From the IMG/VR virus record IMGVR_UViG_2600254997_000022: 20,766 nt of DNA; one strand, written 5' to 3'. Under the pieces are notes generated by a model. The model did no database searches. It was not told the DNA's origin and saw only the letters and a list, made by a program, of their open reading frames with translations. Source of the DNA: a virus (lineage: Duplodnaviria > Heunggongvirae > Uroviricota > Caudoviricetes). Made by a program: the position numbers and the translations under genes. This document shows, piece by piece, positions 70 through 89 of this stretch. Each line of letters opens with the position of its first letter. Position 1 is the stretch's first letter.

Positions 70-89
70 AACTGTGTTTATATACAGTT
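70..89. promoter_or_regulatory. LexA/SOS-box-like palindromic operator AACTGTGTTTATATACAGTT
   Basis: Fits CTGT-N8-ACAG; 16/20 identical to the recalled consensus TACTGTATATATATACAGTA. Lies ~45 bp upstream of a minus-strand ATG (26..24) preceded by GGAG; that ORF runs off the window start. Confidence 0.45.

Follow-up and report, generated by a model that had tools for sequence, protein, structure and literature searches.

The LexA-box-like palindrome at the left end of an island-bearing viral record is the known dinD SOS operator of Escherichia coli, on host DNA flanking the island

Two LexA-box-like palindromes lie in the window, that is, the whole 20,766-nucleotide stretch filed as IMG/VR virus record IMGVR_UViG_2600254997_000022: one close to its first letter (70-89) and one near its middle (10438-10457). 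The question raised by the former is which repressor reads it, and whether it belongs to the mobile element or to the host. The initial annotation had proposed that the two sites share a repressor, either LexA or an element-encoded one, and control modules at both ends of an ejection/iteron region. By direct read, 70-89 is AACTGTGTTTATATACAGTT (AACTGTATATAAACACAGTT on the strand of the adjacent gene, dinD) and 10438-10457 is AACTGTATAAAACAACAGTT. Both fit the AACTGT-N8-ACAGTT frame with no mismatch, as originally described, and no further match exists in the window even when up to two mismatches are allowed. The exact CTGT-N8-ACAG palindrome (CTG-N10-CAG), found at 72-87 in the first box, occurs twice in the window against 0.19 occurrences expected, and a count of two was reached in one of 100 shuffles.

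For motif scoring, a symmetric LexA weight matrix was built from 17 published E. coli boxes (PMC3009722, Table 4), with dinD excluded. Known sites score 13.7–28.2 bits with this matrix; 70-89 scores 22.3 bits, about the level of uvrB, sulA and recA, and 10438-10457 scores 18.8 bits, the highest value among 200 shuffles of the window being 17.5 bits. The palindrome at 70-89 is a strong match to the LexA box. It resembles other gammaproteobacterial boxes (umuDC, sulA, recA and uvrB; consensus TACTGTATATATATACAGTA) in its CTGT-N8-ACAG arms, AT-rich spacer and putative promoter-proximal position, but its outermost bases are A...T, as in uvrB, recN and yebG, and not the T...A of the consensus, and the gene that it is predicted to control differs from those behind the umuDC, sulA, recA and uvrB boxes. 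That the site is a functionless AT-rich palindrome arisen by chance has a negligible probability, because no shuffle equalled its score and because its orthologue is an operator characterised by experiment, as described below.

Over its first 3 kb the window matches E. coli chromosomes, in which the left end is annotated as 'dinD: DNA damage-inducible protein D'. Window 1-248 was found in 4,707 of 5,426 complete E. coli genomes, K-12 included, always on the chromosome and under dinD and yicC annotations. These two genes are adjacent, with no island between them, in K-12 MG1655 and strain 2012C-4221; the window aligns collinearly with both as far as 248 and shows no match beyond it, whereas the alignment with the island-bearing strain 214-4 runs on, yicC being found there ~20.5 kb away, just past a tyrosine integrase. 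Based on this collinearity with island-free genomes and the divergence that follows, window 1-248 is E. coli core chromosome, consisting of the dinD 5' end and the dinD-yicC intergenic region, and 249 is the first base of the mobile island. The gene running off the left end of the window on the minus strand, correctly placed downstream of the palindrome by the initial annotation, is thus dinD, with its ATG 43 nt from the box, and the box itself lies 159 bp outside the island junction.

This location bears directly on the idea that the mobile element encodes a repressor for which both palindromes serve as operators, and which would thereby coordinate modules at either end of the ejection/iteron region. 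The exact frame common to the two sites speaks for it. However, 70-89 is outside the element and present in thousands of genomes without it, among them K-12, and the 4,707 genomes with 1-248 contrast with only about 501 that have the 306-bp island segment around the second box. The frame is not conserved either, since the AA...TT flanks of the second site vary in related islands (GACTGT... or ...ACAGTG). Moreover, no S24, LexA- or CI-type repressor domain was found in any of the 20 island ORFs scanned (Pfam/PHROGs), which offer instead only AlpA, PerC, AntA and Ash domains, and an Rfam match to a C4-type antisense RNA points to RNA-based immunity. An element repressor acting at both sites is therefore exceedingly improbable, and 70-89 was rejected as its operator, being neither inside the element nor restricted to carriers of it. 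For the same reason, control by the pair of modules bracketing the ejection/iteron region is not supported. As for a shared repressor, what survives is the LexA half: both sites are LexA-type boxes that host LexA plausibly reads, while none of the 20 ORFs scanned encodes a LexA/CI-type repressor.

The gene dinD, alias pcsA, is a classical SOS gene, and LexA repression with RecA-triggered derepression is the established mechanism for its K-12 copy. The K-12 dinD box is listed as AACTGTATATAAATACAGTT, the dinD entry being given as ACAACTGTATATAAATACAGTTACA, and RT-qPCR with lexA(Def) and lexA(Ind-) mutants has confirmed that dinD depends on LexA (PMC3009722). A second study places dinD among the classical SOS genes, with an HI of 2.2; AZT induces it 9.8-fold, the dependence on LexA cleavage is 12-fold, and its induction in K-12 is lexA3-dependent (PMC11228462). 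The K-12 box and window 70-89 are identical at 19 of 20 bases with the same flanks, and they occupy orthologous positions, in the interval between the yicC terminator and dinD and 43 nt before the dinD ATG; the two loci differ in that an island is inserted 159 bp upstream of the box in the window. The palindrome is the already known dinD SOS operator, lying on host DNA that flanks the island, and judging from the alignment and motif score it is almost certainly the chromosomal site through which host LexA controls dinD.

In the mechanism envisaged, a LexA dimer would occupy the CTGT-N8-ACAG palindrome 43 nt upstream of the dinD ATG. The candidate dinD promoter obtained from a relaxed hexamer scan combines a -35 hexamer TTGCCC (122..117) with a TG-extended -10 hexamer GATACT (98..93) across an 18-nt spacer, and its -10 lies 3 nt upstream of the box; these hexamers are invariant in the alignment of four E. 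coli strains. A strict sigma-70 scan around 70-89 and 10438-10457 detected no promoter. From the geometry of the candidate promoter, the transcription start of dinD would fall inside the LexA box, and LexA covering that start would block initiation until DNA damage leads to RecA filaments, LexA self-cleavage and derepression of dinD. A core-genome dinD box stands in this window only because the ~20.5-kb integrative island inserted at the yicC 3' end.

Could the dinD box nevertheless serve the island as well? Host LexA bound at 70-89 might regulate, for example, a divergent rightward promoter, so that the two boxes would bracket an SOS-controlled module. Both boxes are good LexA matches, and the island starts only 159 bp away. 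On the other hand, the first island gene from the left (PerC family) is oriented towards dinD on the minus strand, the strict scan of 1-1100 detected nothing promoter-like on the plus strand, the stretch 90-248 is the same as in island-free genomes, and the old yicC terminator stands between box and island. This extension to the island is accordingly rated very improbable. The terminator stretch is present in island-free K-12 and remains on the dinD side of the insertion; because it lies between the island and the dinD promoter, it would shield dinD from island read-through, and dinD regulation should be unaffected by the insertion. The identification of 70-89 as the dinD operator has two practical consequences. 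It fixes the left boundary of the island (248/249, at the yicC 3' end) and identifies the gene beyond the left end of the window as dinD, and it corrects the inventory of the record, in that the left 248 bases are host DNA and 70-89 is not to be counted among the regulatory parts of a mobile element. The features of both DNAs are collected in Table 1.

Table 1. Features of the host flank and the island in the window
Feature	Position	Strand	Basis
dinD 5' end (MNEHHQPF...)	1..26, ATG 26..24	-	RefSeq annotation of the aligned K-12, 2012C-4221 and 214-4 loci; rest of gene left of the window
Putative dinD Shine-Dalgarno GGAG, 6 nt before ATG	33..36	-	Sequence read
LexA (SOS) operator of chromosomal dinD	70..89	-	K-12 alignment 19/20, matrix 22.3 bits
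Candidate dinD sigma-70 promoter	93..122	-	Relaxed hexamer scan
yicC intrinsic terminator (AAAUGCCGC...GCGGCAUUU + U-tract)	177..212, hairpin 182-212	-	Fold -12.4 kcal/mol, z-score -2.3
Chromosome/island junction	248..249	.	Divergence from K-12/2012C-4221 alignment after 248
PerC-family gene	721-1008	-	
gp20-like	7795-9114		
P22-type gp7	9114-9791		
DUF2824/gp14	9785-10246		
Island-borne LexA-type box, separate from dinD unit	10438..10457	-	LexA matrix 18.8 bits, conserved in related islands
TOPRIM/DUF927 primase	11000-13759		
AntA	16957-17790		
AlpA	18234-18437		
Integrase	19513-20766		

The yicC stop codon of island-free genomes corresponds to window 247-249. Compared with K-12, the left junction (window 241-256) is short of about 10 bp (TATTCGATGT); the window and strain 214-4 differ there by one base. 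The right junction (L004 22733-22790) has a separate copy of the yicC 3' end and a new terminator. A clean att duplication was sought at the island ends and not found, the two junctions sharing only the short TGAATCTG, and no account of integration at yicC/dinD came up in a search of the literature. When a phage collection was searched with window 1-3000, the sole matches were two unannotated 'Campylobacter phage' records, A18a and A11a (MG065686.1 / MG065691.1), in which the dinD-yicC intergenic region of E. coli is present (96% identity); the E. coli sequence in these records is probably contamination or misassembly.

The operator allele of the window deserves separate consideration. The only difference from the K-12 box is C for T at box position 14 on the dinD strand, that is, G at window position 76 on the plus strand; the box of strain 2012C-4221 is identical at all 20 positions. 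Exact 30-mer megablast counts the window allele in 808 of the 5,426 complete E. coli genomes; for the K-12 allele the count is 3,351. A weakened operator, leaving dinD leaky or constitutive in this strain, might be suspected, in that the T-to-C change lowers the matrix score from 25.2 to 23.0 bits (about 2 bits lost) and raises the heterology-index-like (HI-like) value, computed on 18 listed E. coli boxes, from 2.14 for the K-12 dinD box to 2.65. Known sites, however, range from 0.27 to 9.3 by the latter measure, and the variant equals or surpasses the recA, sulA, lexA and uvrB boxes in score, its HI-like value being still better than theirs. In addition, C is found at position 14 in four of the 18 known functional boxes, the CTGT/ACAG arms are intact, and an allele kept in 808 complete genomes argues further against leakiness, which we regard as unlikely. 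The window allele is a common natural variant and is predicted to stay a high-affinity site. It is also unrelated to the island, since all four combinations occur: island with G at window position 76 (the window and SCU-123), island with A (214-4), no island with G (2012C-4221) and no island with A (K-12).

Beyond E. coli, the box is found before dinD in few lineages. The 250 nt upstream of 80 DinD homologues (loci L005-L084, one genome per species) were scanned for a LexA box, and a strong box was recognized in only four, namely E. coli, Shigella flexneri and two Citrobacter species, with 76 lacking one; none of the intragenic control stretches reached the strong-box score. In Citrobacter the dinD box is as far from the ATG as in E. 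coli but has another sequence (CACTGTAAAAAYATCCAGTA), which on this comparison shows a motif kept despite sequence turnover, and Klebsiella and Kluyvera have a degenerate version at the corresponding place. LexA control of dinD, as predicted from the boxes, is lineage-specific, and because most homologues outside Escherichia, Shigella and Citrobacter are without a box, cross-species conservation lends limited support to the operator. The homologues themselves (66–84% identity) are scattered over distant phyla, including Chlamydiae, Campylobacterota, Desulfobacterota and Kiritimatiellia, a distribution that suggests horizontal spread.

The second palindrome, at 10438-10457, is the only LexA-type site here that could represent new biology. 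Along the minus strand, a terminator (10543..10528) is followed by a weak -35 hexamer ATGAAT, a perfect TATAAT (10464..10459), the box, a Shine-Dalgarno GGGGG and an ORF of 53 aa, the box lying 13 nt before its ATG. This ORF heads an operon in which P22-type gp14/DUF2824, gp7, gp20-like and gp16-like genes follow. Three other E. coli island variants retain the box, as do 15 of 19 related IMG/VR viral contigs, in which it stands beside the perfect -10 hexamer; among these 15 the spacer exists in two versions (TGTTTTAT and ATCGTTAT), the CTGT/ACAG arms being intact. A shortened CTG-N9-CAG form occurs in four more distant relatives, and one contig has no box. On the basis of these sequence features, host LexA probably also regulates the ejection-gene operon of the island, having been recruited there independently of dinD. 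As to whether 10438-10457 is a true host-LexA operator that puts the P22-type ejection-protein operon of a P4/PICI-like satellite under direct SOS control, the chances seem about evenly divided. If it is, the two boxes share LexA by convergence and not as one regulatory unit.

Operons controlled by host LexA are known in other mobile elements, such as tum of coliphage 186, the antirepressors of Salmonella Gifsy prophages and operon I of SaPI. The second box would be similar to these in that a LexA-type box overlaps the promoter of a mobile-element operon, but the genes behind it are P22-type ejection proteins, whereas those of 186 tum, Gifsy and SaPI operon I are antirepressor or packaging genes. 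The site at 70-89 differs from all of them in lying outside any mobile element. The literature searched yielded nothing specific on satellites that carry ejection proteins or LexA boxes.

The island extends from 249 at the yicC 3' end to about 190 bp past the window end in L004. Its 20 scanned ORFs (Pfam/PHROGs) include an integrase, AlpA, AntA, Ash, a TOPRIM/DUF927 primase, DUF2824, P22 gp7 and PerC, together with an injectosome translocase, an SLT-type lytic protein and an IS3-family transposase; no capsid or packaging genes were seen in the island, and a literature search found no description of it. The regulatory and replication genes look P4/PICI-like, and the cargo consists of P22-type DNA-ejection genes, the SLT/gp16-like protein included, so the island may be a satellite of P22-like phages. 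The SLT/gp16-like gene, intact in strain 214-4 (906 aa), is interrupted in the window by an IS3-family insertion (~5900-7190), with transposase ORFs on the plus strand (5973-7187) and an ALIL frameshift pseudoknot (6254-6370), and its remnants are the overlapping ORFs 4460-5818 and 3763-4716.

Two RNA elements on the minus strand exceed the Rfam gathering score: the C4 antisense RNA (16178-16265, 81 bits) and isrK (16328-16407, 57 bits), a pair that suggests P4/P1-like RNA-based immunity. Both matches fall inside the region annotated by RefSeq in strain 214-4 as a 355-aa 'ash family protein', which in the window consists of two overlapping ORFs (15719-16351 and 16282-16788), and the 355-aa CDS annotation is possibly over-extended.

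A third LexA-like site, upstream of alpA (18487-18506, minus strand, CATTGTATATCTATACAGCT, 18.4 bits), was considered and rejected as a reliable operator, having a TTGT arm and not being conserved in three related islands. In a more distant island, that of E. coli LR-33 (L086 12266-12307), no box precedes the small ORF, and two tandem LexA-type boxes (22.2 and 15.3 bits) are found between ssb and a hypothetical gene. Finally, between the PerC-family gene and plus-strand ORFs, the stretch 1043-1170 contains six copies of a 9-bp motif (GTTGGTTCA / TGAACCAAC), three of them direct and contiguous (1045-1071, or to 1080) and three in the opposite orientation at 21-bp spacing (1114-1170), which looks like an iteron or regulator-binding array.
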